A stretch of 64,000 nucleotides of DNA from Squalus acanthias. Taxonomy: Eukaryota. The position numbers and the translations under genes were made by a program. The notes beneath the pieces were generated by a model. It saw only the letters and a program-made list of their open reading frames with translations, had not been told where the DNA came from and did no database searches. The first letter of the stretch is position 1, and each line of letters opens with the position of its first letter. Shown piece by piece: positions 25,968-62,059 of the stretch. Location: contig JASTWF010000323.1 of NCBI GenBank assembly GCA_030390025.1, positions 186,001 through 250,000 of the forward strand, written 5' to 3'.

Positions 25968-26091
25968 CCGCTGACAATCCCGGATCTCCCGGTTTATTTC
26001 CCTTTCTTGTTTTCAGCTCATCCGCTTCTTCACCGTGAATTTGCAGCGCGAGTTTCTTGCACGGGAGGTAGTCTTTCAGCATGTCTTGTAC
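25968..26091 (-). CDS. Exon of the D8C-stalk gene (phase 0 to 1): VQDMLKDYLPCKKLALQIHGEEADELKTRKGNKPGDPGLSA
   Basis: Acceptor ttctcgtccgttcccag, donor gtgagg; 124 nt, open, phase-compatible with the exon at 27170-27285. Confidence 0.75.
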
Positions 26092-26209
26092 CTGGGAACG
26101 GACGAGAATCGCAGGGTGAGGTACGATGGAGAGGGATCGCAGTTAAACCGCACCTTAATAGGGGCTCTCAGGAAACATCACCGAGTCCCTAACACGTGGG
26201 GAATATCCT

Positions 26210-26645
26210 ACCCTTAAGACCAGGGTAACCCCTCCCACTTCACACCAGGCGACTCCCCTCCCTTGAACATCAGGTGAAGCCCCTCCCTTTTACACCAGGG
26301 GAATCACCTCCCCTTAACTCCAGGGACATCCCCTCCACTTAACACCAGGGGAATCCCCTCCCCTTAACACCAGGGAACTACCCTCCCCTTAACACCAGGG
26401 GAATCCCCTCCCCTTAACACCACGGAACTCCCCTCCCCTTAACAACAGGAAATTCCCTCCCCTTAACACCAGGGAACTACCCTCCCCTTAACACCAGGGG
26501 AATCCCCTCCCCTTAACACCGCGGAAACTCCGCTCCCCTTAACAACAGGAAATCCCCTTATCTTAACACCAGGGGACTACTCTCCACTTAACACTAGGGG
26601 ACTCCCTCCCCCTTTAAGAACATAGGAAATCCGCTTCCCTTAACA
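26210..26645. repeat. 25-bp minisatellite (AACACCAGGGGAATCCCCTCCCCTT)
   Basis: Direct 25-bp periodicity; intronic. Confidence 0.9.
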
Positions 26646-26649
26646 CCAG

Positions 26650-27130
26650 TCCAACTGGAAATGATCAATCAATGCCAACTGGGGATGATTAATCAATTCC
26701 AACTGGTGTTGGTCAATCAATGTCAACTGGTGTTTGTCTATCACTGGCAACTGGGAATGATCAAGCAATTCCAACTGGTGTTCGTCAATCAATGTCAACT
26801 GGTGTTTGTCTATCACTGGCAACTGGGAATGATCAAGCAATTCCAACTGGTGTTGGTCTATCAATGACAACTGGTGCTGGTCAACAATGCCAACTAGGGA
26901 TTGTCAATCAAGGCCAACTGGATTTGTTTAATCAATAAGAACTGGTGTTGTTCAATCAGTGCCAACTGGGGATTGTCAATCAAGGGCAACTGGTGTTGAT
27001 CAATCAATGCCAACAGGTGTTGTTCAATCAATGCCAACTGGTGTTGATCAATCAATGCCAACTGGTGTTGATCAATCAATGCCAACTGGTGTTCTTCAAT
27101 CAATGCCAACTGGTGTTGGTCAATCAGTGC
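26650..27130. repeat. 24-bp minisatellite (CAACTGGTGTTGATCAATCAATGC)
   Basis: About 20 copies; intronic. Confidence 0.9.
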
Positions 27131-27169
27131 CGGCACACCCCGAAAATGAATGAAGAATAAATCCCTCAC

Positions 27170-27285
27170 CTGCCGGAGATAGGCTTCCTTTTCCGCGGGG
27201 GTGTCCAGTTTGTTTTTGCCGATGTACATCACTTGGACCTCGGCACTGACCTTCTCACACTCCTCATCCGACAATTTCAGCACCC
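27170..27285 (-). CDS. Exon (phase 1 to 0): (G)VLKLSDEECEKVSAEVQVMYIGKNKLDTPAEKEAYLRQ
   Basis: Acceptor cttgtcctctcaatgttccag, donor CAG|gtgagg; 116 nt, open. Confidence 0.8.
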
Positions 27286-27689
27286 CTGGAACATTGAGAG
27301 GACAAGTCTTCAGCCGCAACGCCCAAACCACTCCCCCCCCTTCCGTGTAACGTTAGAGCCACAAATACCAACCGGGTACAGGCATGGGGCAGAGAGGGGA
27401 GCAATCCAGGAGCGCCGGTCCAACCGAGGACATTCTGTTCTGGGAGCAGAACTAGGTAATGTGGGTCTGTGCGGACAATTCCAGGTTCAGTCGCTGCTTT
27501 CACAAAACCCCCTGACCCGACCACCACAATTACCCGCAGCAGCTCGAGAAGGCAACTCCACATTCACAGGGCACTGGGGAGGGGCAATGAATGGGGCCCC
27601 CACCCCTGCTCCTGACTCCTGAGAGCCAATAGATACACAGTATAGGGGAGGGGGAGGGGTTTCAAAGAAAGAATGAACAGGGTGCGGCC

Positions 27690-28065
27690 CTTATAAAGCT
27701 CTGATGGAGGGCTTTAAAATTCTGAAGCGGGTTCGATACGGTAGATGTAGAGAAGATGTTTCCATTTGTGCGACCGTCCAAAATTAGGGGCCATAAATAT
27801 AAGATAGTCACTAATAAATCCAAAAGGGAATTCAGGAGAAACTTCTTTTTCCAGAGAATGGTGAGAATGTGGAACTTGCTACGAAAGGGAGTGTTTGAGT
27901 TGAATTGCATAGATGCATTTAAGGGAAGCTAGATAAATACATGAGGGAGATAGGAATAGAAGGATATGTTGATGGGTTTAGATGATTAGAGGTGGGAGGA
28001 TTCTCGTGTGGAGTATAAACACTGGCATGGACCAGTTGGGACGAATGGTCTGTTCTATTCTATGT
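27690..28065 (+). mobile_element. CR1 LINE 3' end fragment
   Basis: gggccataaatataagatagtcactaataaatcc..gacgaatggtctgtt 3' UTR. Confidence 0.8.
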
Positions 28066-28243
28066 ATTTAATATTGGGAGAGACTTTTCCTGATAACTGG
28101 GACTGAGCAGTCAGATTATAAAGCAGGATATTTGGGAGGTTCAATAGCTGAATGTCCGAGGATGGTGATAGGGAATGAATTCTTCCGGAATTGGACCCTG
28201 GAATAGTCTGACTGGTTGTTTCCTACCAGAAGCCGACTGATAC

Positions 28244-28333
28244 CTGGCCTTGATTGTCCCTCCTCTGACAGTTTGCACTCAGCTTCTGATGTAGACGCTC
28301 CCTTTGATCCAGGACTTGTCGTCTTCCCCGAAT
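28244..28333 (-). CDS. Exon (90 nt, phase 1 to 1): (D)SGKTTSPGSKGASTSEAECKLSEEGQSRP
   Basis: Acceptor gatctttcattacag, donor CAG|gtatca, resembling the splice sites of the 96-nt exons. Confidence 0.75.
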
Positions 28334-28479
28334 CTGTAATGAAAGATCAGCCACATGGGAACTGGAGGAAAGAGAAAAAGACCTGGATCTTCCTGCTGGA
28401 TACGGGTCTCTCATAGCACCGGGCCGCGCATTGAACTGATGGGCACAGGGACAAGAGACAATTCAGGACTGAAGGAGCA

Positions 28480-29185
28480 ATAGACAGAGAGAGAAAGATA
28501 AATATATCGAGAGAGAGAGACAGACCGAGTGAGAATGAGTTATAGAGACAGAGAGAGAGAGAGAGAGCTGGAAAGAGAGAGAGAAAGAGTGAAGATGGTG
28601 ACAGAGAGCCAGAGAGAGAGAAAAAAAGAGGGAAATGAACGGAATGAGAGAGTAAGAGACACAGAGAGAGAGAGATAGAGAGTGAAAAAGTGAAATATAT
28701 GGAGAGATAGAGACTGGGGATAGAGAGAGAAAGAAAGACAGGGAGAGATATACAGAGAAAGAGTGAGAAAGAGGGAGACAGAATGCCACTGACACACAGA
28801 GAGAGACAGAGAATGTTGGAGTGAAAGAAAGACTGATAACGTAAGATAAAGTTGGGGAGAAAGGGAGACAGATTGAGAGATAGAGAGAAAAAGAGAGATA
28901 TGCAGAGAAAGAGGGAGACAGAGACAGACAGAAAAAGAAACAGAGAGGCAGACGAAGGGAGAGAGACAAAGAAATTGACAGAAAGAGAGAGAGAGAATGG
29001 GCTAGAGAGACAGAGACAAAGAAATAGAGACAGAGAGAGAGAGACAGAGAGTGTGAGAGAGAGAGAGAGATAGACTGAGGGTGACAGACAGAGAATGAGC
29101 AAGAGAGACAGAGAGAGAAAGAGAGGGAGTGAGAAAGAGACAGACAGAGGGAGAGACAGGAAGAGAGAGACAGCGAGAGAGAGTG
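28480..29185. repeat. Degenerate (GA)n/(GACA)n microsatellite
   Basis: Long purine-rich tract. Confidence 0.9.
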
Positions 29186-29589
29186 GTAGGGGAAAGTTAA
29201 CAACCTATTACCCATCCTGGCATGTGGAACATAGTGACAAGCACTCAATCATGGGATCCTTTCATTCTCTAATCTGTTTCCTGTTAACATAACGTGCCTT
29301 AACTATCACAACAAGGCTCTCGTGTGGCACTTTATCAAATGCCTTGTGAAAATCCATATGCACAAAATATAACATCTCAGTTCCAGAACCGTTATATCAA
29401 GAAAGTTTCCGGTAGAATTATTCCCTCAGATTGTGTCTGGGGACATTCATTTTGAAACTGTCCCTTCATAAAGTGCCGCTATCGCGGAGTTTTTGATGTG
29501 GGAATAATGGATCTTAGTTCAAGGTTTAGTCCAAGGCGAATATGTCTGCTCTGATTCCACGTGAGGTAAATCGCATTTCAATCAAAGTA

Positions 29590-30465
29590 CTGGGGCTCAT
29601 TTCTAGAGTAATTGAATTGGAAAGCAGGGAAGTTATGTAAAATTTATATAGAAACTTGGGTAAGCCCCACTTGGAGTACTCTGCACAGTTCTGGTCTCCA
29701 TATACCTTGGTTAAACCACACCTGGAGCATTGTCCTCTATTCTGGTCTCCATATACGTTGGTTATACCATACTTGGAGTAGAATGCACAGTTCTACTCTC
29801 CTTAAAGCTTGGTTAGAACAAACTTGGAGCAGTATGCATTGTTCCGGTCTCCATATACTTTGCTTACATCACACTTGGAGTAGGAGGCACAGTTCTACTC
29901 TCCATACACCTTCATTAGATCACACTTGGCGCACTGCGCATAGTTAAGGTCTCCATAATATAAAAAGGATATAGAGGCACTGGAGAAGATGCAAAAACAA
30001 GGCTTACAAGGATGATCCCAGAACTGGGAGGGTACAACTTTCAGGAATGAATGAAACGGCTGGGGCTTACATTCTCCAGACAAGAGAAGGCTGAGGGGTG
30101 ACACGATGGAGGTCTTTAAAATTATGAAGGGTTTGAGAGTTTAGACCTATTGAGGATGTTTCCACTTGTGGATGTATCCAAAATTAGGGGCCATAAATAT
30201 AAGATAGGCACTAATAGATCCTATAGGGATTTCAGGAGCAACTCCTTTATCCGGAGACTGGTGAGCATGTGGAACTAGCTACAAGGAGTAGTTGAGGCAA
30301 ATATCATGGATGCATTTAAGGTGAAGCTAGATAAACTCGTGAGGGTGAACGGTCTCGGAGGTTGTGCTGATAGGGTGAGATGAAGTAGGGTTGGAGGAGT
30401 CTTGTGTGAAGCATAAACACTAGCATGGATCAGGTGGGCCGAATGGCCTGTTTCTGTGCTGTGAA
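29590..30465 (+). mobile_element. CR1 3' fragment containing an internal 51-bp tandem amplification (29654-29960)
   Basis: The LVRPHLEYCAQFWSP-coding segment occurs 6 times, followed by the CR1 3' end gggccgaatggcctgtttct. Confidence 0.85.
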
Positions 30466-30778
30466 TTCAACGCCTCCAATTCAGTCACCTAGTTTCAGAA
30501 ACAAACCCTCCTGGTATCACAAGCTCCATCCGTACTGCCCCTTCCCCAATGGACACAGACTCCTCCACTGATTCTCTCAGTCCCATCCGGTTCTGTCTCA
30601 TTTCCTGACTGCCCAACCTGATTTGAAATGATAAATCCGAGGAAGCTTGGATAGAGTGCGGGGCAATCTATCCTCCGAGAAAGGTCTCATTCGAGACTGG
30701 GTAATGCGCAGGGACTGAGCATTTCAGGAGTCACATTGGGTGAAGTGTCAGTTTGAAGGAACCCCACCAGACTGATAC

Positions 30779-30868
30779 CTGAGGCTGTAGACCCCGCTGG
30801 GACAGAGGACGATTTCTCAGTAGATTTTTCAGATGTTTGTTCCTCGGGTTCCTGAGTCGGGATTGCCT
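30779..30868 (-). CDS. Stalk repeat exon 5, ancestral acceptor lost, probable cryptic AG 6 nt downstream: (E)AIPTQEPEEQTSEKSTEKSSSVPAGSTAS
   Basis: Homologous to the 96-nt exons; donor gtatca intact; the ancestral acceptor position reads attatga instead of attacag. Confidence 0.55.
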
Positions 30869-31708
30869 CTGGATTCATAATATAGAATGAGAAACATGAG
30901 AGAGAGAAGGAGTGGGGAACACCCGAACACATCATCAGGCTGATACAATTGTCCGGAGAATGCCAGACTCCAGACTTTAAATAAGCCATTGCCCTCCAAC
31001 TCCAGTCATCTGATCCACTACAGCCAACTCTTTATGTCACTATAACGTACTCCCCCTCGGTTACTACATCACACAATATTCAGTCACTACAGCCCACATA
31101 CTTGAGTCACTACATCCCACTCTACTCAGTCGCTGCATCCCACTCACCTCAGCTATTACATTCCACTTCCCTCATTCACAACATCCCACTCCCAAGATTC
31201 ATCACATCCCACTCTCCCAATCACTGCATCGCAGCTCCTCAGTCAGTACATCGCACACACCTTAATCAGTAAATCCAATACCCTCAGTCACTAATTTCTC
31301 TCCCTTCAGTCACTACATCCGAATCGCCTCAGTCACCTCATCTCACTCCCTTTAGTCACTAATTCCACGCCCTCAGTTACTGCATTGCACTCCACTAATC
31401 ATTATATCGCACTCGCCTGAGTCACTATATACCACTCTACTCAGTCATCACATCGCACTCTGCTCAGTCACTACACCACTCCCCTCAGACATTGCTACAC
31501 ACTGCCCTCAGACACTGCCTCCCACTCCCCGCAGTCACTGCATCCCAATCCCCTCAGTCTCCTCATCCCACTTCCCACAGTCCGCTCATCCCACAACCCT
31601 CCCTCATTTCATCCCACGCACCGCACTGAGAGACTGGATGAATCTGAGGATTCCAGCAGTTACATTGGGTGAACAGTCTGTGTAGAATGGAATCCACAAG
31701 GCAGATAC

Positions 31709-31804
31709 CTGAGGCTGCAGAGCCTGCTGAGACAGAAGATGTACGGTCAGCGGATTCGCGAGTCGATTGTTCCTCAGGATCCTGAGTTGGAGATGTCTCT
31801 GGAT
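31709..31804 (-). CDS. Stalk repeat exon 4 (96 nt, phase 1 to 1): (D)PETSPTQDPEEQSTRESADRTSSVSAGSAAS
   Basis: Acceptor tctctcttcctttattacag, donor gtatct; open. Confidence 0.85.
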
Positions 31805-32710
31805 CTGTAATAAAGGAAGAGAGACATGGTAGAGTGCAGAGTGGAGCAACAGAACAGGTCATCAGGCTGATACTAGAGCCCAGAAAATGTCAGACATCAG
31901 TCTTTATAAAACAGATAAACATCAAATCCAACTCCCCTCAGTTACTGCATCCCATAACTCTCAGTCAATTCATTGCACATCTTTCAGTTACTGCATCCCA
32001 CTCCCCTCAGTCACTGCAACCCACTCCCCTCAGTAATTGCCTCCCTTTCACCTCAGTCACTGCATCCCACTCCCCTCCATCACTGCATCCCAATACACCC
32101 GGTGACTGAATTCCACTCCCTGCAATCCCCTCAGCCCTCTCCACTCTGGCACTAAATACAACTAGCCTCATTCTCTTCTACCCACTACCTTCAGCCACCT
32201 CGTCCCTCTACATTCAGGCTCCCCATCCCACTCCCTTCAGCGTTCACATCCCACTCGCCTCAGACTCCTCATCTCACTCCCTTCACATCCCTCATCCCAC
32301 TACTCTCAGACTCCTCATTCCACGACTCTCAGTCGCCTCATTCCACTCCCCTCAGAATACACACTCCAACCCGTCCCACTCACCCCTCAGTCTGCTCATC
32401 TCATTCTCCTCAGGCTCCGCATCCCACTTCCCTTAGACACATCATCGCATTACACTAAGAATTCTCATCACAAACCCCTCAGTCTCCTGGTCCCGCACAC
32501 CTCAGTTGCAGCATCCCACTCCCCTCAATCACTACATCCAACTCCGCTTGGGCTCCTCATCCTAATTCCCACAGTCCGCTCATCTCACACCCCTCCTTCA
32601 TTACATCCCACTCCCCTCAATAAGATACTGGATGAATCTGAGGGACTGAGGATGTCAACAGTTAGATTGAGTGAAAAGTCTGTGTAGAATGGACGCCACA
32701 AGGGAGATAC

Positions 32711-32806
32711 CTGAGGTTGCAGACCCTGCTGGGAGAGAAGATGAATGTTCAGCGGATTCTCGAGTGGATTGTTCCTCGGGTTCCTGAGTTGGGGATGTCT
32801 CTGTAT
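32711..32806 (-). CDS. Stalk repeat exon 3 (96 nt): (D)TETSPTQEPEEQSTRESAEHSSSLPAGSATS
   Basis: Acceptor tctttctttattacag, donor gtatct; open. Confidence 0.85.
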
Positions 32807-33275
32807 CTGTAATAAAGAAAGAGACACATGGGAGGGTGCAGTTTCGACAACACCCGAATAGGTCATCAGTCTGGTACTTGGAGAATGCCCGACACCAGTC
32901 TTTATAAAAGAATCATCCAATCCCATTCCCCTTAGTCATTACATCACACTCCCCTCATTCACGACATACCACTCCACTCATTCACTATATGACACTCCCC
33001 TCATTCACTACATCACACTCCACTCATTCACTTCCTTCAACTCCCCTTATTCAGTACACCACACTCTCCTCAATCACTGCATCCCACTCGCTCAGTCAGT
33101 GCATTCAACTATTCTCAGTCGCTGCATCCGAATCCCCTCAGTCTCCTCATCTCACACATGTCAGACAGTAAATCCCACATCACACAGTAAGAGATTGGAT
33201 CAATCTGTGCAACTGAGGATTGCTGCATACTCATTGGGTGAGCAGTCTGTAGAATGGACGCCACAAGGTAGATAC

Positions 33276-33371
33276 CTGAGGCTGTAGTCACCACTGGAAT
33301 AGTGGATGTATGGTCAGCGGATTTGTAAGTCGATTGTTCCGCGGGTTCCTGAGTTGGGGATGTGTCTGGAT
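33276..33371 (-). CDS. Stalk repeat exon 2 (96 nt): (D)PDTSPTQEPAEQSTYKSADHTSTIPVVTTAS
   Basis: Acceptor tctcttcctttctatcag, donor gtatct; open. Confidence 0.85.
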
Positions 33372-33532
33372 CTGATAGAAAGGAAGAGAGACATAGGAGG
33401 GTTCAGAGTGGAGAACAGGCCATCAGGCTGGTACTAGAGTCCGGAGAATTCCCGACATCAGTCTTTATATAGCCCAGAATCATCTAATCCCACTCCCCTA
33501 AATCACTAAATTCCACGTCCCTCAGTCACTGC

Positions 33533-33932
33533 TTTTTTTTATACGTTCCTGGTATGTGGGCGTCGCTGGCAAGGCCAGCATTTATTGCCGAACCCTAACT
33601 GCCCTTCAGAAGATGGTGGTGAGCTGCCTTCTTCAATACAACTGTATGATTTGCTAGGCCATTTCAGAGCGCAGTTAGGAGTCAAATAAATGGGTCTGGA
33701 GCCACATATAGTCCAGACCGGGTAAGGACGGCAGATTTCCTTCCCTAAAGGACATTAGTGAACCGGATTTTTTTTTAATGACAATCTGATAATTTAATGG
33801 ACTAGCTTATAATTCCAGATATTTATTAAATTCCAAAACTGTTGTGGTTGGATTTGATCTCATATTTTCCAGATCATTAGTCCAGGCCTCGGGATTATTA
33901 CTGCAGTAACATAACCACTGTGTTACCGTTAC
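33533..33932 (-). mobile_element. tRNA-derived SINE whose 3' tail matches the LINE at 43478-46072
   Basis: Minus-strand head acacagtggttatgttactg..gagatcaaatccaaccac; tail aataaatgctggccttgccagcgacgcccaca followed by poly(A). Confidence 0.75.
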
Positions 33933-34141
33933 CCCGCATCCAAATCCCCTCAATCCCCTCATCCAACACACGTCAGTCACTGCATCCCGATGCCCTCATT
34001 AAGAGACTGGATGATTCTCTGAAAATGCGATTTCAGAACTTACATTCGGACATTTTATTACTTTAAAATCTCTATATAAATACAAGTTATTGTTGTTGTT
34101 GCTGAACAGTCTGTGTAGAATGGATCCCACAAGGCAGTTAC

Positions 34142-34237
34142 CTGAGCTTGCAGACCATGCTGGTCTAGAGGAGAAACGGTTAGCAGGTTCACGAGTCGAC
34201 TGTTCCTCGGGTTCCTGATTTGGGAATGTCTTGGGAT
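34142..34237 (-). CDS. Stalk repeat exon 1 (96 nt): (D)PKTFPNQEPEEQSTREPANRFSSRPAWSASS
   Basis: Acceptor cctctgttcctatattacag, donor gtaact; open. Confidence 0.85.
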
Positions 34238-34859
34238 CTGTAATATAGGAACAGAGGCATGGGAGAGTGCAGAGTGGGGAACACCAGAACAGGTCATCAG
34301 GCTGGTATTAGAGTCTGGTGAATGTCAGACACCAGTCTTTATAAAACGCAGAATCATCAAATCCCATTCCCCATGACCCAGAAAGCCTGTAGATGGATCG
34401 TGCGGTGTTCAGCACTACACTGGGGGTCTATCGCGATCAGTGGGCACCGCAGGGAACAGAGTGTCAGATAGACTCGGAGAAAAGCGTTTGATTCAGCTCC
34501 CTATAGCTTTGAGGAAAAGTACAATTTGTGTTTCAGTTCCTTTATTCGTTGTGCCCCTTTCAACAATGCGGGGTGCTACATAATTTTGTTTTTCTGTTGA
34601 TGACACGGGACATCCCAGAGTCACCCTTCTGGATCATTTCAAAACGGACGTGTTTGCTCGCAACACCCAAAGCACTAATTGGTCCCCTTGGATGACGAGC
34701 CTGATTGCTGATTGGTCCAATTGGAGGACAAGACTGCCTACTGCAGACAGAACAGAGCGCACCTGCAACAGACAGGACTCACCCTCGTGGGTTAAGACCT
34801 TCTCCCACCCGCAAACATGTTCCTGCTCCCACAGCCCAAATTACTGATCAACTAACGCC

Positions 34860-37800
34860 ACCCAAGTTCCTGACCTCCCTCCAACCAAGTTCCTGACATT
34901 CTCCGCCGGTGCAATTTCTTGACCTCCGCCCATCAAAGTTACTGACCTCCACCCCCAGCGCGAGTTCCTGACCTTATCCCCCGGTACGATTCCTGAACTT
35001 CTCTGCAGCCCCGCCCCACCCCCCCCCCCCCGAGTTACTGCCCCCCGCGAGTTGCTGACCTTCTGTCCCACACCCAGTTCCTGACCTTCTCGAACCCCCG
35101 AGTTCCGAAATTCTCTCTCCCCCAAACCAAGTTCCTGAGCTTCTCTCCCCCTCCCAATTTCCTGCACATCACTCCCCCAATTCCTGACCTTCTCACCCTC
35201 CTCCTACCCGCGTCCCTGACCATCACTCCCACGCGAGGTCCTGACGTATTCTCCCCCACCGAGTTCCTGACCTTCTCTCCCACCTGAGTTCCTGAACTTC
35301 TCATCCCCCCCGAGTTCCTGAGCCTATATCCGTCCCACCCCAGTTCCTGACCTTCTCTATCACCCCCCCCCCCCGAGTTCCTGACCTTGTTCCTCCACCT
35401 GATTTACGGACCTTCTCTCCCCCCACCCCGAGTTCCTGACCTTATCGCCCTCCCACCCGAGTTCCTGACCTTCTCTCCCCTCCCCCCGAGTTCATGACCT
35501 TCTCCCCTTCCCCTGATTTTCGGACCTACTCTCCCCCCACCCCGAGTTCCTGATCTTTTCTCTCCCCACCCCGAGCTACTGACCTTATCGCCCTCCACAC
35601 GAGTTCCTCAGCTTCTCTTTCCGCCCGAGTTCCTGATCTTCTCCCCCAATTGATATTCCGACCATATCTCCCACCACCCCGAGTTCCTGACCTTCTCTCC
35701 AACCAGCTCGAGTTCCTGACCTTCTCACATCCTCACCCGAATTCCTGACCTTTCCCCCCCCAACCCGAGTTCCTGACCATCTCACCTCCTCACCCGAATT
35801 CCTGACCTTCTCCATTCCCCGAGTTCCTTACCTTCTCACTCCACCCCAACAACCCCAGGTCCTGACCTCCTCTCCCGCCGCCCCTGAGATCTTTATCTTC
35901 TCGCCCCGCGGCTTCCTGACCTTCACTCACCATCCCTGATTTCCTGACTTTCTCTCTCCTCCCTCCCACCTCTTGAGATCCTGACGTTCAATCAGATTCT
36001 CCACCACCGCGGAATTCCTGACTTTCTATTAAAAACCACAAACCACGCAACACCTCGAGTTCCTGAAATTGTCTCTTCAATCCTCACCCCCATTCGGGTT
36101 CCTGAACTGTATTCACTCCCCAAAGTTCCTGACATTCTCTCCCCGTTCCCCGGAGATCCTTACGTTCTACCCTACCCGAGTTCATGACCGTCTCATCCAC
36201 TCGCCCGAGTTCCTGATCTTCACTCCCCAACATCACCCCCACAAGTTCCTGATTTTCTCTGCACCTCCACGATTTCCTGACCTTCTCTCAGCCCACCCTA
36301 ATTCCTGACTTTCTCTCTCTCACCACACCCAAGAATTCCTGACCTTCTCTCCCTCCTCCGAGTTCCTGACGTTATTCCCCCTCACGAGTTGCTGACCTTC
36401 TCAACCCCACCCCCGAGTTCCTGACATTCTCAACCCCCAAGTTATTGACCTTCTCGCCCAACCTTCCGAGTCCCTGTCGTTATTGCCCCCTCCCGAGTCG
36501 CTGACCTTCTCAACCCCCAAATTCCTGACCTTCTCTCCAAAACCCGATTTAATTACCTTCTCTCCCCTCCCCCTGAATTACTGATCATCTCTCCCATGCC
36601 CCCTCCACCGAGTTCCTGTCCTTCTCACGCCCGTGGTATCTGACTTTCTCCCACCCAGCGAGTTCCTGACATTCTCTCTCTCCCCCCAGATTCCTGATCT
36701 TCTCTTCCCCTCCGAGTTCCTAACCTTCTCCTTCTCCCCCCAAGTTCCTGACATTCCCGCTCACCTCCGAGTTCCTGTCCTTCTCTCTCCCCCACCCCGA
36801 GTTTCTTTCCTTCTCTCTCCACCCACCCCCACCCCCCGAATTCCTGTCCTTCTCTAACACCCACCCCCCGTGTTCCTGTCCTCGCGCTCCCCCCGAGTTC
36901 CTGTCGTTCTCTCCCCCCCCCGAGATCCTGTACTTCTCTCTGCCCCCCCAGACTTCCTGTCCTTCTCTCTCTCCCTCCCCCCGAGATCCTGTCATTCTCT
37001 CTTCACCCCCGAGTTCCTGTCCTTCATTCGCCCCCCCCCCCCATCAGTTCCTGTCCTTCTCTCTCCCCCACCCGAGTTCCTGTCCTTCTCTCTCCCCCGC
37101 ACCAGCGAGTTCCGGTCCTTCTATCTCCCCACCCCCGTGTTACTGTCCTTCTCTCTCCCACCCCCCGAGTTCCTGTCCTTCACTCTCCCCCCCACCCTCC
37201 GAGTTCATGTCCTTCTCTCTCCCCACCACCCCCCCCCCCGGGTTCCTGTCATTCTCTCTTCCCCCCCGAGTTCCTGTCCTTCTCTCGACCCCCCCACTTC
37301 CTGTCCTTCTCTCCCCCATCCCCGAGTTCCTGTCCTTCTCGCTCCCCCCGAGTTCCTGTCCATCTCTGCCCCCCCCGAGATCCTGTCCTTCTCTCTACCA
37401 CCCCCCGAGTTCCTATACTTCTCTCTCCCACCCCCCGAGTTCCTGTCCTTCTCTCTCCCCCCTCCGAGTTGCTGACCTTCTCTCCCACTCCGAGTTCCTG
37501 TCCTTCTCTCTCCCTCCTCCGAGTTCCTGACCTTCTCTCCCCTCTTCGAGTTCCTGTTCTTCTCTCTCCACCCACCGAGTTCCTGTCCTACTCTCTCCCC
37601 CCACCGAGTTCCTGTCTTTCTCTCTCCCCACCCCGAGTTCCTGTCATTCTCTCTCCCACCCACCCGAGTTCCTGTCCTTTCTCTCCCCCCTCCGAGATCC
37701 TGCCCTTCTCTCTACCCCTCCGAGTTCCTGTCCTTCTCTCCCCCCCCCGAGTTCCTGTCCTTCCTTCTCCCCCTTCTCCGAGTTCCTGTCGTTCTCTCTC

Positions 37801-38330
37801 CCGCACCCTGCACGATTTCCTGTCCTTCTCTCTCTCCCCCTCACCGAGTTACTGTCCTTCTCTCCCCCCCACGAGTTCCTTTCCTTCTCTCTCGCCCCTC
37901 CGAGTTCCTGTCCTTCTCTCTCCCACCCTCTGAGTTCCTGTCCTTCTCTCTCGCCCCCTCCGAGTTCCTGTCCTTTTCTCTGCCCCCCCCCGAGTTCCTG
38001 TCCTTCTCTCTCCCCCCGAGTCCCTGACCTTCTCTCCCGCCCCCGAGTTCCTGTCCTTCTCGCCCCCCCCTGAGTTCCTGTCCTTCTCTCTCCCCCCTCC
38101 GAGTTCCTGTCCTTCTCTCTCTCCCGCCCCCGAGCACCTGACCTTCTCTCTCTCCCGCCCCCGAGTACCTGTCCTTTTCTCTCCCCTCCGAGTTCCTGAC
38201 CTTTTCTCTCCACGTCCCGCGTTCCTGACCTTCTCTCCAACCCCCGAGTTCATGACCTTCACTCCCTCCCCGCGAGTTCCTGACCTTATCTCCGCCCCCA
38301 CCCCTGAGTTCCTGATCTTTGCCCCCCCTA
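34860..38330. repeat. ~27-30-bp pyrimidine-rich satellite (CCCGAGTTCCTG[A/T]CCTTCTCTCCCC), intronic
   Basis: More than 100 copies of the gagttcctg core. Confidence 0.95.
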
Positions 38331-38341
38331 CCCCAATGTAC

Positions 38342-38505
38342 CTGTACAATAAGCCATGTTACACCTGTATGCCGGCTTCAACTCATAAACAAAGTAAGTG
38401 GTGCAGTTTTTGATCTTTATCTTCACGGTCGCTTCACAGTGATTTCCAGCCCCGGTAAAACAAACTTTCCTCTCCACTTCTCCATCTCCCACGGTGGGAT
38501 GAGAC
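38342..38505 (-). CDS. D8C module 2, exon C: HPTVGDGEVERKVCFTGAGNHCEATVKIKIKNCTTYFVYELKPAYRCNMAYCT (apparent 1-nt deletion at the exon start)
   Basis: Aligns to the UMOD/GP2 D8C C-half (HP..G.V.R..C..C..VK.C..YYVY.L..C..AYCT); 164 nt versus 165 nt in the paralogous exon. Confidence 0.85.
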
Positions 38506-38598
38506 CTGAAACGAGGTTTGTAAATATTGAAGAATGTAAGCGAGGTGAACAGTGCTGGACAGTGAATGTAAATCTGAGATTATAAAGTCTGAAATTAC

Positions 38599-38675
38599 CG
38601 TTTAACCAGCCCGAGAGGTGTGTGGAGCAGTGAAGGTGTGTAACCTGAGTCTCGGGAATCTCCCATCCACCAGAA
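38599..38675 (-). CDS. D8C module 2, exon B (77 nt, phase 2 to 1): SGGWEIPETQVTHLHCSTHLSGWLN
   Basis: Acceptor ttgttcttccag, donor gtaatt; matches UMOD GG.RM.ET....RC.T..P.WLNG. Confidence 0.88.
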
Positions 38676-38969
38676 CTGGAAGAACAATTAAAGAGTCAGC
38701 CCTGAACTGATGACTCATAATAACTGACAGAAAGAAAAGGAACTGATTGGTCAGTAAAGATCACACCGTATTTCTGGTCTTCAAGTTAGGGGCTGGGGTG
38801 AAATAGTTGCTTCGGGTTAAAGCTGGATCTTGGAGTTTAGTATTAATACTATATTAATTTAGTAACAGTTAATACTGTATTAAATTATTAACTGTTAATT
38901 AGATATGATATTACTAATTTTAATTAGGTACCCCTTAGTCTAAAGTTTATGTAAAGTTAGTTAATAGTC

Positions 38970-41900: not shown

Positions 41901-42866
41901 GGGTCGGTTCTAGGACCACTATTTTTCTAGATATATATTAACGAATTGGATGTGCGTGTACAGGGCCCAATTTCAAAATTTGCACATGATACAATACTTG
42001 GAATTATAGTGAACAGTGAAGAGGATAGTGATGGACTTCAAGAGGACAGAGACAGGCTGGTGGAATGGGCGGACATTTGCAGATTAAATTTATTGCAGAA
42101 AACTGCGAAGTGATACATTTTGGTCGAAAAGAAGAGCAGAGGAATTATAACCTAAAGGGTACAAACCTAAAGGGAGAACAACGGATACATGTGCTTAAAT
42201 CGTTTAACTTGGCAGGACAGATTGAAAAAGCTTACGGAATATTTTGCTTTTTAAATAGAGGTATAGAGTATAAAGCATGGAAATTATTTCGAACTTGTAT
42301 AATACACTCGTTCGGCCTCAAATGGAGTATTGTGTCCAATTCAGGGCACTGTACTCGATGAAATTTGTGAATACCTTAGCGAGGTGCAGAAAAGATTTAA
42401 GAGAATGTTTCCAGGGATGAGGGACTTCAGTTACGTGGATTGACTGGAGAAACAGGCGTTGTTCTCCTTAGAGCAGAAAAGATTGAGAGGAGATTTGAAA
42501 AAGGCGTTGAAAATGAGGAGAGGTCTGCACAGAGTAGACAGAGAGAAACGGTACCCATTGGCAGCAGGGTTGAGAACAAGAGGACACAAATTTAAGGTGA
42601 TTGGCAAAAGAACCAAAGGCGACAAAGGAAAAAAATACTCAGCGAGTTGTTAGGATCTGGAATGCATTGCCTGAAACTTTGGTGAAGGCAGACTCAATCA
42701 CATCTTTCAGAAGGGAGTTGGATGAGCACCTGAAAGAAAATAAATGCAGGGCTACGGGGAAAGGGCAGGAGATTGGGATTAACTGAAGTGCTCTTGCAGA
42801 GAACCGGTATTGTCTCGACGGGCCGAAAATCCTTCTTCCGTGCTGTAACAATTCTATGATTCTATG
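38970..42866 (+). mobile_element. Near full-length decayed CR1 LINE (ORF1 zinc finger + esterase, ORF2), interrupted at ~40666-41133 by an inverted CR1 fragment
   Basis: CxxC motifs, SGNH esterase-like ORF1, APE and RT motifs; 3' end ttctatgattctatga. Confidence 0.9.
40720..41133 (-). mobile_element. Inverted CR1 RT fragment nested in the CR1
   Basis: Peptide SGVPQGSVMGPLLFVVYINDLD..FADDTK. Confidence 0.9.
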
Positions 42867-42899
42867 AAAGACTGGGACCCGCAGAGAGTATTGTAAACT

Positions 42900-43120
42900 G
42901 GGGTCCATCCTTTACTCTCTGTTCTCGATCTATATTCCTCTCTATTCCGAATAACTCCCTTTACTTCTGTTCTCGATCTATATTTCCCTCTATTCCGGGT
43001 ATCTCCCTTTACTCTCTGTCCCCGTGCTATAACCCCCTCTATCCTAGGTATCCCCTTTACTCTCTGTCCCCGTTCTATATCCCTCTCTAACCTGGGATTC
43101 TCCCTTTACACACTGTTTCT
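42900..43120. repeat. ~49-bp minisatellite (ccctttactctctgtccccgttctatattcctctctatcccgggtatct)
   Basis: 4-5 copies; a longer paralogous array lies at 53340-53880. Confidence 0.8.
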
Positions 43121-43291
43121 CTATAGAGACCGGTTGTTCAAATTTCGCTATATCCACTCCCTGTCCAATTGCTCTGAATGATTATCTCTGTCTCCCTGCA
43201 GTAAGCATTCCTACTCGCAACCTTTATTCGCTTTTGTACATTTACTCCTCGCTTATCGACTAGTTTATCATTAAATTTCCACTCACATTAC

Positions 43292-43430
43292 CTTTTAAAT
43301 CTGTACCATCCGTAGGCAACATCCCAATCACATTTCTTTTGTTTATAGCACTGAGTCCCACTACAGTCCGTGCTCCTCCAGGGCTGGTTCAGGACTGTGT
43401 GATGTTCACACGGCTCAGTGAGTGCGGAGT
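43292..43430 (-). CDS. D8C module 2, exon A (139 nt, phase 1 to 2): (D)SALTEPCEHHTVLNQPWRSTDCSGTQCYKQKKCDWDVAYGWYRFK
   Basis: Acceptor ctttctgtcactcagtcccag, donor AAG|gtaatg; matches UMOD DPC..H..L...WRST.....CD....GWYRF. Confidence 0.9.
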
Positions 43431-43477
43431 CTGGGACTGAGTGACAGAAAGATTTTTAATGTTAATATAAAATAATA

Positions 43478-46072
43478 AGAAAGAAACCGGACGGACCACC
43501 CGGCATCGACATCGGCACCGGCTACGGACATGGCACGCCCAGCCCAATCTACCCTGCAAAGTCCTCCTCACCAACATCTGGGGATTGTGCCAAAATTGGG
43601 AGAGCTGTCCCACAGACTAGTCAAACAACAGCCTGACATAGTCATACTCACAGAATCATACATTTCAGTAAATGTCCCAAACTCCTCCATCACCATCCTC
43701 AGTTATGTCATGTCCCAGCAGCAGGGCAGACCCACCAGGAGTGGCCGCACCGTGGTATACAGTCGGAAAGGAGTGGGCTTGGGGGTCCTCAACATTGACT
43801 CCGGACCCCATGAAGTCTCATGGCTTCAGGTCAAGCATGGGGAAGGAAACCTTCTGCTGATTACTACCTACCTCCCTGATGAATCTGTATTCCACCTTGT
43901 TGCACACCACTTGAAGAAGCACTAAAAATAGCAAGGACACATAATGTACTCTGGGTGGGAGACTTCAATGTCCAACACCAAGAATGGCTCAGTAGCACCA
44001 CTATTGACCGAGCTGGCCACGTCCTGAAGGACATAACTGCCAGTCTGGGCCTACGACAGGTGGTGAGAGAACCAACACAAGGGAAAAACCTACTTGATCC
44101 CGTCCTCACCAATCTACCTGTCACAGATGCAACTGTACATGACAGTATTGGTAGCAGTGACAACTGCACAGTCATTGTGGAGACGAAGTCCCGTCTTCAC
44201 ACTGAGGACACCCTCCCTCCTGTTGTGTGGCACTGCCACTGTGCTAAATGGGATAGATTCAGAACAGATCTAGCAGCTCGAAAATGGGCATCCATGAGGC
44301 GCTGTGGGACATCAGCAGAACTGAATTCAAACCCAATCTGTAACCTCATGGACCGGCATATCCCTCACTCTACCATTACCATCAAGCCAGGGGACCAACC
44401 CTGGTTCAATAAGGAGTGTAGAAGAGCATGCCAGGAGCAGGACGAGGCACATCTAAAAATGAGGTGCCAAACTGGGGAAGCTGCAACACAGGACTCTATG
44501 CATGCTAAAAGGATCAAGCAACATGCTACAGACAGGGGTAAGAGATCCCACAATTAACGGATCAGATCAATGCTCTGCAGTCCTGCCACATCCTGTCGTG
44601 AATGGTGGTGGACCATTAAACAACTAACGGGAGGAGGAGGCTTCTTGAATATCCTCATCCTTAATGATGGTGGAGCCCAGCACGTGAGTGCAAAAGAAAA
44701 GACTGAAGCGTTTTCAACCATGTTCAGCCAGAAGTGCCGAGTTGCTGATCCATATCGGCCTCCTCCTGAGGTCCCCAAAATCACAGAACCCAGCTTTCAG
44801 CCAATTCGATTCACTTCACGTGATATCATGAAACGGCTCAGCGCCTTGGATACATCAAAAGCTATGGGCCCTGACAACATTGCGGCTATCATGCTGAAGA
44901 CATGTGCTCCAGAACAAGCCGCGCCTCTAGACAAGCTGCTCCAGTACAGCTACAACACTGGCATCTATCCGATAATGTGAAAAACTGCCCAGGAATGCCC
45001 TGTCCTCAAAAAGCAGGGCAAATCTAAACCGGCCAATTACTGCCCCATCAGTCTTCTCTCAATCATCAGCAAAGTGATGGAAGGTGTCACCGTCAGTGCT
45101 ATTAGCGGCACTTACTCAACAGGAACCTGCTCACTGATGCCCAGTTTGGGTTTCGCCAAGACCACTCTGCTCCACACATCATTACAGTCTTTTTCCGAAC
45201 ATGGACAAAGGAGCTGATTTCCAGACGTGAAGTGAGAGTGACAGCCCTAGACTTCAAGGCAGCATTTGACCGAGTGTGGCATGAAGGAGCCATAGTAAAA
45301 CTGAGGTCAATGGGAATCGGGGGAAAAACTCTCCACTGGCTGGAGTCTTACCCAGCACAAAGGAAAATGGTTGTGGTGATAGAAGGTCAATTATCACAGC
45401 ACTAGACAAAGCCGTTCGCCAGAAACGTCACTGGGCCAGACACATAAATACTGTGGAAACAAGAGCAGGTCAGAGGCTAGGTATTCTGTGGCGAGTGTCT
45501 AACCTCCTGACTCCCCAAAGCCTTTCTACCATCTACAAGGCAAAAGTAAGGAGTGTGATGGAATACTCTCCACTTGCCTGGATGAGTGCAACACAAACAA
45601 CACTCAAGAAGCTTGAAATCATGCAGGACAAAGCAGCCCGCTTGATTGCCACCCCATCCACCACCTCAAAGATTCACTCCCTCCACCACCGGCGCACCGT
45701 GGATGCAGTGTGTACTATCTACAAGATGCACTGAAGCAACTCGCCAAGGCTTCTTCTGCAGCACCTCACACACCCGCGACCTCTTCCACCTAGAAGGACA
45801 AGGGCAGCAGGCGCATGGGAACACCACCACCTCCAAGTTCCTCTCCAAGTCACACACCATCCTAACTTAGAAGTATATCGCCAATCCTTCATCGTCGCTG
45901 GGTCAAAATCCTAGAACTCCATACCTAACTGCACTGTGGGAGTATATTCACCACACGGACTGCAGCGTTTCAAGAAGGCGGATCACCACCACCTTCTCGG
46001 GGGCAATCAGGGATCGGCAATAAATGCTGGCCTTGCCAGCGACGCCCACATCACACAAACGAATAAAAAAAT
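43478..46072 (+). mobile_element. Non-LTR retrotransposon (APE + RT, CR1/jockey group, distinct from the HER1-like CR1s), decayed, with an internal deletion in RT
   Basis: Peptides PDIVILTES, GDFN..H.EW, GPDNI and ALDFKAAFDRVWH; 3' AATAAA and poly(A); absent from the paralogous duplication copy. Confidence 0.88.
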
Positions 46073-47845: not shown

Positions 47846-48244
47846 TTCTTCCCGATTCCATTACCTAAAAATGTCCTCTCAGCATCACCTCAAAACTGAC
47901 ACATTACTGACACGGAAGAGATTGAACCTGTAAATATTCTGAAACTAACACTCAGTCTCATTAAAGTTCCAGCCATGGTGATGCTTGAATTGCAGTTTAA
48001 ATGCAGAGAACATCGCAGTTCCTTTACTCTCCCAGTGTCAGCGGGTGAGCAGCAGTGAGGTTCTGGGTCATTGACATCCGGTCAGGGGACTCGCAGTGTC
48101 CCGTATCCTGGTTACAAAAACAATCTCCCAGTAAGATCCCATCTGGAATTCTGTGTTCAATTCTGAGCAGAGCAACTCAGGAAGGACATATTGGCCATCA
48201 CTCCAACGCCACCCCTACCCCCAAAATTCCTTATCTTCTCTCCA

Positions 48245-48670: not shown

Positions 48671-48678
48671 CCATGTAC

Positions 48679-48843
48679 CTGTGCAATAAGCCATGTTATA
48701 CCCGGGTGCCGGCTTCAACTCATAAACGAAGTAACTGCTGCAGTTTTTGATCTTTATCTCCCGGTTCCTGTGACAGGGATTTACAAACCCGGTAAAACAA
48801 ACTGTCCTCTCCACTTCTCCCTGTCCAACGGTGGGATGTGCAC
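48679..48843 (-). CDS. D8C module 1, exon C (165 nt, phase 1 to 1): AHPTVGQGEVERTVCFTGFVNPCHRNREIKIKNCSSYFVYELKPAPGYNMAYCT
   Basis: Acceptor cctcgtttcag, donor CAG|gtacat; open; D8C C-half. Confidence 0.9.
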
Positions 48844-48936
48844 CTGAAACGAGGTTTGTAAATACTGAAGAATGTAACCGAGGTGAACAGTGCTGGACAG
48901 TGAATGTAAATCTGAGATTATAAAGTCTGTAATTAC

Positions 48937-49013
48937 CCTTTAACCAGCCTGGGCGGCCTGTGGAGCAGCGACGGACTGAAACCGGAGTCTCTGGAATCTC
49001 CCATCCACCAGAA
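48937..49013 (-). CDS. D8C module 1, exon B (77 nt): SGGWEIPETPVSVRRCSTGRPGWLK
   Basis: Acceptor ttgttgttccag, donor gtaatt; open. Confidence 0.9.
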
Positions 49014-49174
49014 CTGGAACAACAATCACAGAGTCAGCCCCTGAACTGATGGCTCTTATTAACTGACAGAAAGACTGGGAACTGACTGGTTGGTAAAGGT
49101 CACACCGTGTTTCTGCTCTTCAAGTTAGGGGCCGGGGTTAAATAGTTGGTTAGTGTTAAAGCTGGAGCTTGGAG

Positions 49175-49335
49175 ATTAGTAACTGTTAATACTACATTAA
49201 ATTAGTTACTGTTAATACCACGTTAAATTAGTAACTGTAAATACTATATTAAATTAGTAACTGTTAATACTACGTTAAATTAGTAACTGTTAATACTCTA
49301 TTAAATTAGTAAGTGTTAATAACATATATTAATAA
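49175..49335. repeat. 26-bp AT-rich minisatellite (gttaatactatattaaattagtaact); shorter paralog at ~38840-38925
   Basis: About 6 copies. Confidence 0.8.
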
Positions 49336-49389
49336 CTTCAATTGGGTACCCACGTAGAGTTAGTAAAGTTAGGTAATAGTCAAATAAGT

Positions 49390-52300: not shown

Positions 52301-53303
52301 GGACTGGAGGAAGTTATACAGTGGTTTTCCCCAGGGGTCAGTTGTAGGAACACTGATTTTCTTGATAAATATTAAAGTCTTGGATGTGGGTGTACAGGGC
52401 ACAATTCAAAATTTGCTCATGGCACGAACTTGTAAGTATTGTGGACAGTGAGAAGGATAGTCATATAATTCAAGAGGGCATAGTCAGGCTGGTGGAATGG
52501 GCGGACAGGTGGCAGATGAAATTTAATGCAGAAAAGTGCGAATTAATACATTCTGGTAGAAATAATGGGGAGATGAAATATAAACTAAAGTGTACAATCC
52601 TAAAGTGGGTGCATGAACAGAGAGGCCATGGGGTATATGTGCACAAATCGTTGAAGTTGGCAGTACAGATTGAAATAGCATCATGAATAGAGGTATAGAG
52701 TAAAAAGCCTGGATATTATGATGAAACTGTCTAAAACATTGTTTCGGCCTCAACTGGAGTATTGTGTCCAATCCTGGGCACCGCGATTTAGGAAGAAAAT
52801 AAAGGCCTTAGATAGGCTGCGGAAAAGATTTACAAGAATGTTCCCAGGTAGAAGGAACTTCCGTTACGTCGATAGACTGGAGAAGCTGGGGTTGTTCTCC
52901 TTAGAGCAGAGAAGATTGAGAGGAGTTTTGATAGAGTTGTTCAAAATCATGAGGGGTCTGGACAGAGTAGATAGAGTGAAACGGTTCCCATTGGCAGAAG
53001 GGTCGAGAAACAGAGGACACAGATTTAAGGTGATTGGCAGAAGAACCAAAGGCGACATAGGCAAAACTTTTTTACTCAGCGAGTTCTTAAAATCTGTAAT
53101 GCAAAGCCTGAAAGGTTGGGGGAGTCATACTTAATAACAGCTTTCAGGAGGGAGTGGGATAAGTACCCGAAGGAAAAATATTTGCAGGACTACGGGGAAA
53201 GGGCGGGTGAGTGAACTAACTGAAGTGATCTTGCAAAGAGCTGGCACGCGTTCGACGGGCCAAATGGCCTTCTTCCGTGCTGTAACCATTCTATGATTCT
53301 ATG
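49390..53303 (+). mobile_element. Near full-length decayed CR1 LINE (paralog of 38970-42866)
   Basis: ORF1 esterase CLPGA..GLLPVP..NAWLERWCRREGF..GLHLN; APE ITETWL; RT YMDFQKAFDK; tail ttctatgattctatga. Confidence 0.92.
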
Positions 53304-53339
53304 AAAGATTGGGAACCACATAGAGTACCGGAAACCGGG

Positions 53340-53880
53340 GCCCATCCTTTACTCTCTGTCCCCGTTCTATATTCCCCTCTATCCCGGGTATCTCCCTTTA
53401 CTCTCTGTCCACGTTCTATATTCCTCTCTATCCCGGGTATCTCCCTTTACTCTCTGTCCCCGTTCTATATTCCCCTCTATCCCGGATATGTCACATTATT
53501 CTCTGTCCCCGTTCTATATTCCTCTCTATCTCCGGTATATACCTTTACACTCTGCAATGTTCTATATTTCCTTTCTGTCTTTATGACAGAGATAGATAGA
53601 TTTCTAGACACAAAAGGCATCAGTGGGTATGGGGAGACAGCAGGGATATGTTATTGAGATATAGGATCAGCTATGATCATATTGAATGGCGGAGCAGGCA
53701 AGAAGGGCCGAATAGCCTACCCCTGCAACTATTTTTCTATGTTTCTATATCGCGGGTATCTTCCTTAACTCTCTGTCCCCGTTCTATATTTCCCTCTATC
53801 CCGGGTATCTCCCTTTACTCTCTTTTCCCGTTCATTATTTCCCTCTATCCCGGGTATCTCCCTTTATGCTCCCTGTTTCT
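53340..53880. repeat. ~49-bp minisatellite with a short CR1 3' tail inserted (~53578-53746)
   Basis: The array is interrupted by gacagagatagatagatttctagacac..tttctatgtttctat. Confidence 0.8.
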
Positions 53881-54053
53881 CTGTGCAGAGTCCGGTTGTC
53901 CCCCTTTCCCTGTATGAACTCCCTGCCCCATTGCTCTGACTGATGATCCCGGTCTCTCTGCAGTTCCCATTCCTACTCTCACAATTTGTTCTGTTTTGTA
54001 TATTTACTACTCGCTTATCGACTAGTTTATCTGTAATTTCCCCCTCACGTTAC

Positions 54054-54198
54054 CTTTTAAATCTGTACCATCCTTGAACAAGATCGTTATCACACTTCGA
54101 GTCCCACCCATCGATGCACTGAGTCTCAATGCAGTCCGTGCTCCTCCAGGTGTCCTCCAGGACTGTGTGATGTTCACACGGGTCCGTGAGTGCGGAGT
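54054..54198 (-). CDS. D8C module 1, exon A (145 nt, phase 1 to 2): (D)SALTDPCEHHTVLEDTWRSTDCIETQCIDGWDSKCDNDLVQGWYRFK
   Basis: Acceptor ttttgtcactcagtcgcag, donor AAG|gtaacg; open; DPC..WRST..CD.DL..GWYRF signature. Confidence 0.9.
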
Positions 54199-62058: not shown

Positions 62059-62059
62059 A

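Follow-up and report, generated by a model that had tools for sequence, protein, structure and literature searches.

An elasmobranch family of predicted secreted proteins with UMOD/GP2-type D10C heads and no ZP module, represented by a probable pseudogene in Squalus acanthias

Introduction

UMOD and GP2 are classic vertebrate decoys against bacterial adhesion, and to our knowledge the D10C (D8C) head has so far been studied only on ZP filaments. Such heads occur without an accompanying ZP module at a locus of Squalus acanthias (assembly GCA_030390025.1, contig JASTWF010000323.1, positions 186,001-250,000), a stretch of 64,000 nucleotides (nt) that we refer to as the window and whose minus strand holds the gene analyzed here. 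An initial annotation, made without database searches, had joined 14 exons into tandem D8C heads, an exon-repeat Ser/Thr stalk and a C-terminus that it did not recognize, and had read the product as a lineage-specific secreted or surface decoy or recognition protein.

We find that the window gene is almost certainly a copy of an elasmobranch-wide family of predicted secreted proteins in which D10C heads are followed by an acidic stalk and a C-terminal domain and no ZP module is present. The mechanism that we propose for the family, namely that its members are secreted and bind partners through the loops of their heads, is tentative and in our estimate falls a little short of an even chance; taken whole, as identity, architecture and mechanism, we consider the statement likely. 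The architecture and homology of the earlier interpretation stood, whereas the copy turned out to be disabled as assembled and the decoy mechanism proved a weak analogy. Nor is the gene hidden, as had been claimed: RefSeq already contains the family as automatic models, and what appears to be new, judged from sequence, is a D10C repertoire without ZP.

Results

Exon structure and predicted product

All 14 stretches proposed earlier were verified on the minus strand, where they are flanked by AG and GT and can be joined in phase. Together with a signal exon beyond the window end, they form a gene of about 39.5 kb and 15 exons (Table 1), arranged as the signal exon, two three-exon D10C (D8C) modules, five stalk exons, a linker and a two-exon C-terminal domain.

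The junctions were compared with assembled contigs of run X3, which were mapped to positions 25800-45799 and come from one study of three coded runs (share at most 0.10); the run search returned these three and listed no RNA holder. These contigs join 38342 to 34237, 31709 to 30868 and 30779 to 28333, each at the coordinates of the initial annotation. Record 18 (depth 3) combines 34142-34237 with 38342-38419 and so links head exon C to stalk exon 1, which bears out the placement of the heads on the stalk. Record 17 (depth 5.6) combines 31709-31804 with 30779-30868 and then jumps to 28333; at this last joint, the only one printed with its intron ends, the skipped part has GT..AG ends on the gene strand. 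The ends of exon C, of the stalk block and of the 28333 exon are therefore exact. Usable cover was limited to parts of the region from exon C to the linker and did not extend to exons A and B, to the site of the frameshift or to either C-terminal exon. The loss of the acceptor of stalk exon 5, already noticed earlier, was confirmed: the ancestral AG has become TG, and in the X3 contig splicing relies instead on an AG located 9 nt further downstream, which keeps the frame.

The acceptors of exons A' and A were placed differently. They most likely lie at 54204 and 43436, 6 nt upstream of the positions first given (54198 and 43430). We prefer 54204 because joining it to the signal exon yields the junction residues of the homologue P0008, a RefSeq protein of Mustelus asterias, and 43436 because the resulting head-to-head linker resembles the Heterodontus models. 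Copies of exon A carry two in-frame acceptor AGs 6 nt apart, the first kept in 40 and the second in all 42 of the 42 copies sampled; these twin acceptors (54198-54210 and 43430-43442; L110-L149) could be used by a signal exon or by a preceding head.

The initial annotation reported that it had identified neither the signal-peptide exon nor the terminal exon. The first does lie outside the window: two scans inside the window found none, whereas a matrix scan extended 10 kb past the window end (74 kb in all) located an ATG followed by eleven codons, one base and a GTAAGT donor. A TATA-like box precedes it by about 70 nt. The terminal coding exon, on the other hand, was already in hand as the last exon listed (26091-25968), which had been taken for an internal one. 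Position 25968 was rejected as a splice donor, since the last exon of the paralogues ends in a stop and, in the window copy, an AATAAA at 25998-25993 overlaps that family stop (TAA).

Read through with an X at each of two frame breaks described below, the product has 530 residues and an isoelectric point of 5.1, with a signal peptide at 1-15, heads at 19-142 and 150-271, a stalk at 272-460 and the C-terminal domain at 461-530. The C-end is hydrophilic in the family frame, as it is in the homologues, and reading of the sequences revealed neither a glycosylphosphatidylinositol (GPI) anchor nor a membrane span. With a signal peptide and a hydrophilic C-end, the protein is predicted to be secreted, one of the two possibilities given in the initial annotation.

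Table 1. Exons of the D10C gene in the window, in gene order (positions are those of the window unless indicated).
Feature	Position	Strand	Remarks
Exon 1, signal peptide	L003 1503-1470 (1470-1503 nt past the window end)		matrix-scan score 41; next best 27
Exon 2 (A'), head 1, first part	54054..54204	-	second AG 6 nt downstream at 54198
Exon 3 (B'), head 1, middle	48937..49013	-	holds hypervariable patches 1 and 2
Exon 4 (C'), head 1, last part	48679..48843	-	PF23283 23.7 bits; ninth Cys replaced by Tyr
Exon 5 (A), head 2, first part	43292..43436	-	acceptor 43436
Exon 6 (B), head 2, middle	38599..38675	-	
Exon 7 (C), head 2, last part	38342..38505	-	PF23283 30.9 bits; 164 nt, 165 expected
Stalk exon 1	34142..34237	-	96 nt, phase 1-1; X3 record 18, 0 mismatches
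Stalk exon 2	33276..33371	-	96 nt; matches homologue repeats (tblastn)
Stalk exon 3	32711..32806	-	96 nt; matches homologue repeats (tblastn)
Stalk exon 4	31709..31804	-	96 nt; X3 record 17, 3 mismatches
Stalk exon 5	30779..30868	-	90 nt; X3 record 17, 0 mismatches, joined to 28333
Linker exon	28244..28333	-	degenerate stalk exon, one Cys
First C-terminal-domain exon	27170..27285	-	at least 55 genome copies; aligns to the C-end of P0056
Terminal coding exon, second half of C-terminal domain	25994..26091	-	family stop TAA 25996-25994

Identity of the heads

When the six head-exon translations were scanned singly against Pfam, two matched PF23283 (D8C_UMOD, cut-off 27 bits): exon C above the cut-off and exon C' below it (Table 1). 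The translations of A', A, B' and B gave no match when scanned in this way. Joined, A'+B'+C' are 72% identical over 130 residues to P0008, which itself scores 47.9 bits against PF23283 and, over the whole D10C, matches GP2 (7p6r) with an E value of 2e-23 and UMOD (6zs5) with 1e-22.

Fold matching was done on the AlphaFold models of two family members, P0160 and P0008. The P0160 model, with a pLDDT of 65-88 over most of the D10C, superposes on 7p6r_B with an E value of 3.8e-12, a TM score of 0.80 and a root-mean-square deviation of 2.4 Å over 126 columns, and all 12 of its Foldseek matches at E≤0.001 are GP2 or UMOD. The P0008 model reaches a pLDDT of 84-96 in the D10C core. By these comparisons the heads are UMOD/GP2-type D10C (D8C) domains, as first proposed.

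In GP2, the ten D10C cysteines are paired C1-C8, C2-C9, C3-C6, C4-C10 and C5-C7, according to the published account (PMC8930769). Eight of the ten align in P0008, which has neither C3 nor C6 but carries two new cysteines in an insert encoded by exon A. From the exon translations, head 1 of the window copy has nine cysteines, with Tyr in place of C9, and head 2 has ten. Several other copies in the genome also lack the ninth cysteine.

Stalk, C-terminal domain and absence of a ZP module

By composition, the 189-residue stalk is 35% Ser and Thr, 19% Asp and Glu, and 11% Pro, and its five exons, of phase 1-1, match repeats of the homologues P0003, P0004 and P0009 by tblastn; the same searches with the shark homologues also mapped the D10C exons. 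The C-terminus that the initial annotation had left unrecognized is a domain conserved throughout the family, with which the protein terminates. Joined in script, its two exons match the C-end of the Carcharodon carcharias protein P0056 (XP_041038350.1) at 66% identity over 56 residues, that of Chiloscyllium P0020 at 63% and those of Hemitrygon proteins at 56%, and the alignment to the RefSeq proteins is unbroken across the exon junction. A hidden Markov model (HMM) of the domain matched 45 of 175 stored homologues, with 43 of the 45 matches ending at most 24 residues from the C-end. Searches of Pfam and of the Atlas returned nothing like it (best Atlas feature score 0.79, TM at most 0.54). 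The first C-terminal exon was open in all 41 copies sampled, and its splice sites were intact in 38.

No ZP module was found by any of the searches made, in line with the earlier reading. None of seven family proteins scanned contained PF00100, PF23344 or an EGF domain, PF23283 being the only Pfam domain above its cut-off. We also searched the window plus 10 kb by tblastn, taking as queries from more distant D10C proteins the ZP-bearing parts of five of them, 400 residues of a sixth that include part of its ZP-C match, and a seven-transmembrane (7TM) part; apart from a D10C tail, no match was better than E 0.48. The missing ZP module implies that any multivalency of these proteins would not come from ZP polymerization.

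The exons might nevertheless belong to a larger gene like UMOD, GP2, the omcins or an adhesion G-protein-coupled receptor, with its ZP, EGF or 7TM exons outside the window. Such combinations do exist, for among 29 more distant D10C representatives six carry ZP-C or ZP-N and one carries 7tm_2, and others carry EGF, SRCR, CUB or VWD. Against this possibility, besides the tblastn result, the paralogues have a stop in their last exon, the homologous RefSeq proteins end at the same place, none of the at least 150 PF00100 matches listed for the genome falls on the window contig, and an AATAAA overlaps the stop in the window copy, a point limited by the paralogue on contig C2450, which has TGA and no AATAAA. 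We regard a larger gene of this kind as exceedingly improbable.

Copy number and distribution of the family

The claim of a lineage-specific family was borne out. A word-index search with exon C' returned eight candidates, all of them shark proteins (Mustelus, Cetorhinus, Heterodontus) with PF23283 as their sole Pfam domain. In the shark homologues a signal peptide precedes between one and three D10C domains, and acidic Ser/Thr repeats lead on to a short C-terminal domain. When P0008 was used as query in an exhaustive search without a profile, 2903 proteins were returned at E≤0.001, 124 of them at E≤1e-30. All 20 clusters looked up by name were from sharks or rays, and with the Mustelus, Cetorhinus and Heterodontus set they bring the family to 14 elasmobranch species. 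In RefSeq its members bear the names 'uromodulin-like', 'GP2-like', 'OIT3-like' or 'uncharacterized'. Our literature search turned up no publication about shark or ray proteins of the D10C-only kind, and none that paired a uromodulin, GP2-like or OIT3 name with an elasmobranch term.

Within the S. acanthias genome the copy counts are lower bounds, with up to 150 candidates scored per search. Exon C' has at least 149 matches (nine with stops), comprising the 100% self-match of the window and 148 others, and exon A' at least 143 (five with stops). The first C-terminal exon has at least 55 matches, the last exon at least 50, and another C-terminal subtype at least 79 (E≤10). Nearly all family copies lie on small unplaced contigs. 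On the strength of these searches the family is elasmobranch-specific and highly amplified, with an estimated size on the order of a hundred genes.

The genome also holds regular arrays of ZP-C domains (PF00100), with at least 150 matches on contigs C1109, C1945, C2997, C3223, C3278, C3813 and C9 (L150-L153). One array unit is 97% identical to the RefSeq 'zona pellucida sperm-binding protein 4-like' of another shark, which together with the regularity of the arrays indicates that ZP4-like egg-coat genes have been amplified too. These ZP-only arrays were considered as a partner of the D10C-only family and rejected, as they consist of ZP4-like egg-coat genes, lie on other contigs and showed no link to the family.

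State of the window copy

Positions 24000-56000 of the window were compared with two collinear paralogous units, C702:590000-629999 and C2450:6425701-6465700. The three units, of about 35-40 kb each, show mosaic identity of 87-99% across the whole gene, a pattern which indicates that they exchange sequence. Within one unit the two heads are only 75-80% alike; the duplication of the head is therefore older than that of the unit.

The 1-nt gap noted earlier at exon C is real. One nucleotide is lost after the second base of the exon, a T of the GTTCTC found in the paralogues, and the shifted frame meets a stop at residue 244; GTTCTC stands at this place in 36 of 62 copies, and GTCTC in the window and in one unrelated copy. 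That copy, L026 (C2450:1806990-1807421), has the same loss as window positions 38503-38505 and is otherwise dissimilar; the same slip may have happened twice, or gene conversion may have carried the loss from one copy to the other. The window also lacks one nucleotide between 26020 and 26019, so that the family stop is no longer in frame and the reading frame continues to 25831. The window copy as assembled has no open frame from the start to the family stop. The C2450 paralogue has an in-frame TAG in its linker exon, and either that copy is broken or the exon is skipped.

Its 1.6 kb of coding sequence carries two independent frameshifts, and the window copy is therefore probably a transcribed pseudogene; that the two deletions are assembly errors is the less probable explanation, though one of some weight.

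Selection on the heads

We estimated selection from pairwise dN/dS and from simple counting of changes on a tree, in samples of 62 copies of exons B+C (54 distinct), 33 distinct copies of exon A and 38 distinct copies of the first C-terminal exon; the sample includes some pseudogenes. For exons B+C, of which 55 of 62 pairs are intact, dN is 0.160 and dS 0.127, giving a dN/dS of 1.25. Tree counting yielded 533 non-silent (N) and 113 silent (S) changes and a dN/dS of 1.32 (binomial p 0.003), and divergence at the first, second and third codon positions is 0.160, 0.144 and 0.107. The changes cluster in codon patches 10-15, 18-21, 42-52 and 70-75, which lie between invariant scaffolds and change 3-6 times as fast as silent sites. 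Exon A is conserved except for a single variable loop. For the first C-terminal exon (all 41 sampled copies open), dN is 0.050, dS 0.107 and dN/dS 0.47, with a flank divergence (K) of 0.20.

Patches 1 and 3 align with the GP2 segments that are tied by the C3-C6 disulfide, whose two cysteines are both missing in P0008, and from this alignment we infer that the two patches are neighbors in space. The excess of non-silent over silent change in the loops, alongside a conserved C-terminal exon, points to a direct and evolving contact with a ligand.

The same figures bear on whether the entire array is dead DNA, its exon-like pieces spread by segmental duplication and no protein made from any copy. 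The window copy is frameshifted, seven of the 62 B+C pairs are defective and the copies sit on small unplaced contigs, all of which would fit. Neutral decay, however, gives a dN/dS of about 1 and not invariant scaffolds beside patches that change at several times the silent rate; reading frames are open in 55 of the 62 B+C pairs, in all 42 exon-A copies and in all 41 C-terminal exons; conservation of the C-terminal exon greatly exceeds that of its flanks; sharks and rays have the architecture in common; and spliced RNA exists. We consider it highly unlikely that the whole array is dead.

Satellites and transposon-like sequences

Satellites occupy 352-9214 and 9267-17136 (two different 27-bp units, about 326 and 289 copies), 22165-23646 (a G-rich 23-mer) and 62051-64000. 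The last, built of a 53-bp AT-rich unit, is part of intron 1 of the D10C gene and continues for about 490 nt beyond the window. Stretches of the public models P0005 and P0009 match transposon-like open reading frames in introns at 52819-53007, 55518-55640 and 43981-44097; some public models of the D10C family probably include exons derived from transposable elements.

Discussion

How might such proteins act? In the mechanism that we tentatively propose, they would be released into a secretion, where the D10C heads would bind partners directly via four to five patches of hypervariable loop on which diversifying selection acts. The acidic stalk, glycosylated in this scheme, would extend the heads and keep the protein soluble, and the conserved C-terminal domain would serve a step common to all members, be it assembly, docking or sorting. 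The sum would be a repertoire, encoded in the germline, of soluble molecules for recognition or decoy; microbes are the most likely targets, given the parallels with the teleost omcins, UMOD and GP2. In its strongest form, as a ZP-filament-free germline repertoire of about a hundred secreted D10C-head proteins with positively selected loops and a constant stalk and C-terminal domain, the idea is possible and on balance doubtful. Such a repertoire would be comparable in logic to other diversified innate families.

Several observations weigh against this interpretation. As assembled, the window copy itself meets a premature stop at residue 244. The X3 runs are labelled RNA by guess only, and we take them to be RNA on account of the precise removal of introns; their contigs are shallow (depth 3-5.6), one piece has 3 mismatches in 96 nt, and they may derive from the window locus or from a 97-99% identical paralogue. 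As for selection, exon A (33 distinct copies of 141 nt) has a dN of 0.144, a dS of 0.190 and a dN/dS of 0.76. Site tests on B+C gave a replacement excess at p<0.05 in eight of 79 codons and a deficit in six, with uncorrected p values. Gene conversion between paralogues may confound the B+C estimates, and the silent divergence of these exons (0.127) exceeds that of the core of the 93-nt intron (K 0.082) and of the upstream flank (K 0.066) in the same 54 copies (L010-L069). In the AlphaFold models of two family members the C-terminal domain includes one long helix and reaches a pLDDT of only 53-70, for which reason we assign it no fold, and the role given to it is a guess. Finally, the glycan sites of the known decoys are poorly kept: the position of UMOD N275 is Glu in the aligned P0008, within a motif that is invariant in 54 genome copies, and a sequon of the GP2 N65 type, DPCQNYT in PMC8930769, occurs in neither window head, in 11 of 42 sampled genome copies and in 78 of 189 motifs of the homologues.

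These last points weaken the FimH-decoy analogy of the initial annotation, and they also tell on a literal UMOD/GP2 mechanism, in which a protected high-mannose N-glycan would serve as bait for bacterial lectins with the loops uninvolved. The D10C fold is kept, the 78 homologue motifs do place N-H/Y-T where GP2 has N65, and both window heads carry an N-C-S/T sequon in exon C, one that looks common among the printed copies. The beta-hairpin that forms the glycan groove of UMOD and GP2 is nevertheless absent, the signal exon joining directly to the residues that precede the first D10C cysteine, and a pure glycan scaffold would leave the loop dN>dS unexplained. We judge a bait of this kind improbable.

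The main rival to an antimicrobial repertoire is a reproductive role for the same family, in egg-envelope, oviducal or seminal secretions, with the change in the heads driven by sexual conflict or gamete recognition. Ampliconic arrays combined with diversifying selection are typical of reproductive proteins, and the arrays described here fit that pattern; the genome, moreover, contains the large ZP4-like egg-coat arrays with their 150 or more PF00100 matches. No contig is common to the ZP and D10C families among the matches listed, however, and no sequence link between them was found, while the closest characterized relatives, UMOD, GP2 and omcin5, act against bacteria. On this evidence a reproductive function seems unlikely, and a soluble repertoire directed against microbes remains the reading that we prefer.

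If that reading is true, the question of what the heads bind, and in which secretion, becomes testable, and a large overlooked effector family may be added to elasmobranch biology. The D10C head occurs here without ZP, in tandem, on a stalk and with a new C-terminal domain, in at least 140-150 head modules in one genome. For annotation, the names 'uromodulin-like' and 'GP2-like' on family models mislead, and the window copy deserves a probable-pseudogene flag.

Among known systems, the nearest are the RefSeq elasmobranch models themselves, such as P0056 and P0008, which belong to the same family as the window gene and share with it the signal peptide, the D10C heads, the acidic Ser/Thr repeats and the C-terminal domain. 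They are automatic models under names borrowed from mammals, and the window copy differs from them by its two frameshifts and by the Cys-to-Tyr change in head 1. With the decoy module of human GP2 (7p6r) and UMOD (6zs5/7pfp) the family has the D10C fold in common, at 42-44% identity, but it lacks the beta-hairpin, EGF, ZP and membrane anchor. It also lacks the C3-C6 pair and has two new cysteines in the exon-A insert; the N275 sequon is absent and the N65-type one sporadic, and the family heads are tandem with hypervariable loops.

The teleost omcins offer a parallel from another lineage. According to their published description (PMC11415648), they are teleost-specific and tandemly amplified (omc1-15 in zebrafish; 1 to >15 per species), and each protein has several D10C domains together with EGF IV, a ZP module and a GPI anchor inferred by prediction; omc5 is induced by Escherichia coli, and its loss shortens zebrafish survival. 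Lineage-specific amplified D10C repeats are common to omcins and the window family and are all that the two share, since the elasmobranch family is without EGF IV, ZP or GPI anchor, has its own C-terminal domain and comprises roughly a hundred genes. Secreted mucins, lastly, resemble the window stalk in that repeated in-phase exons encode a Ser/Thr-rich spacer; the stalk differs in being acidic and low in Pro, and the family does without the VWD, C8 and cystine-knot domains by which mucins assemble.

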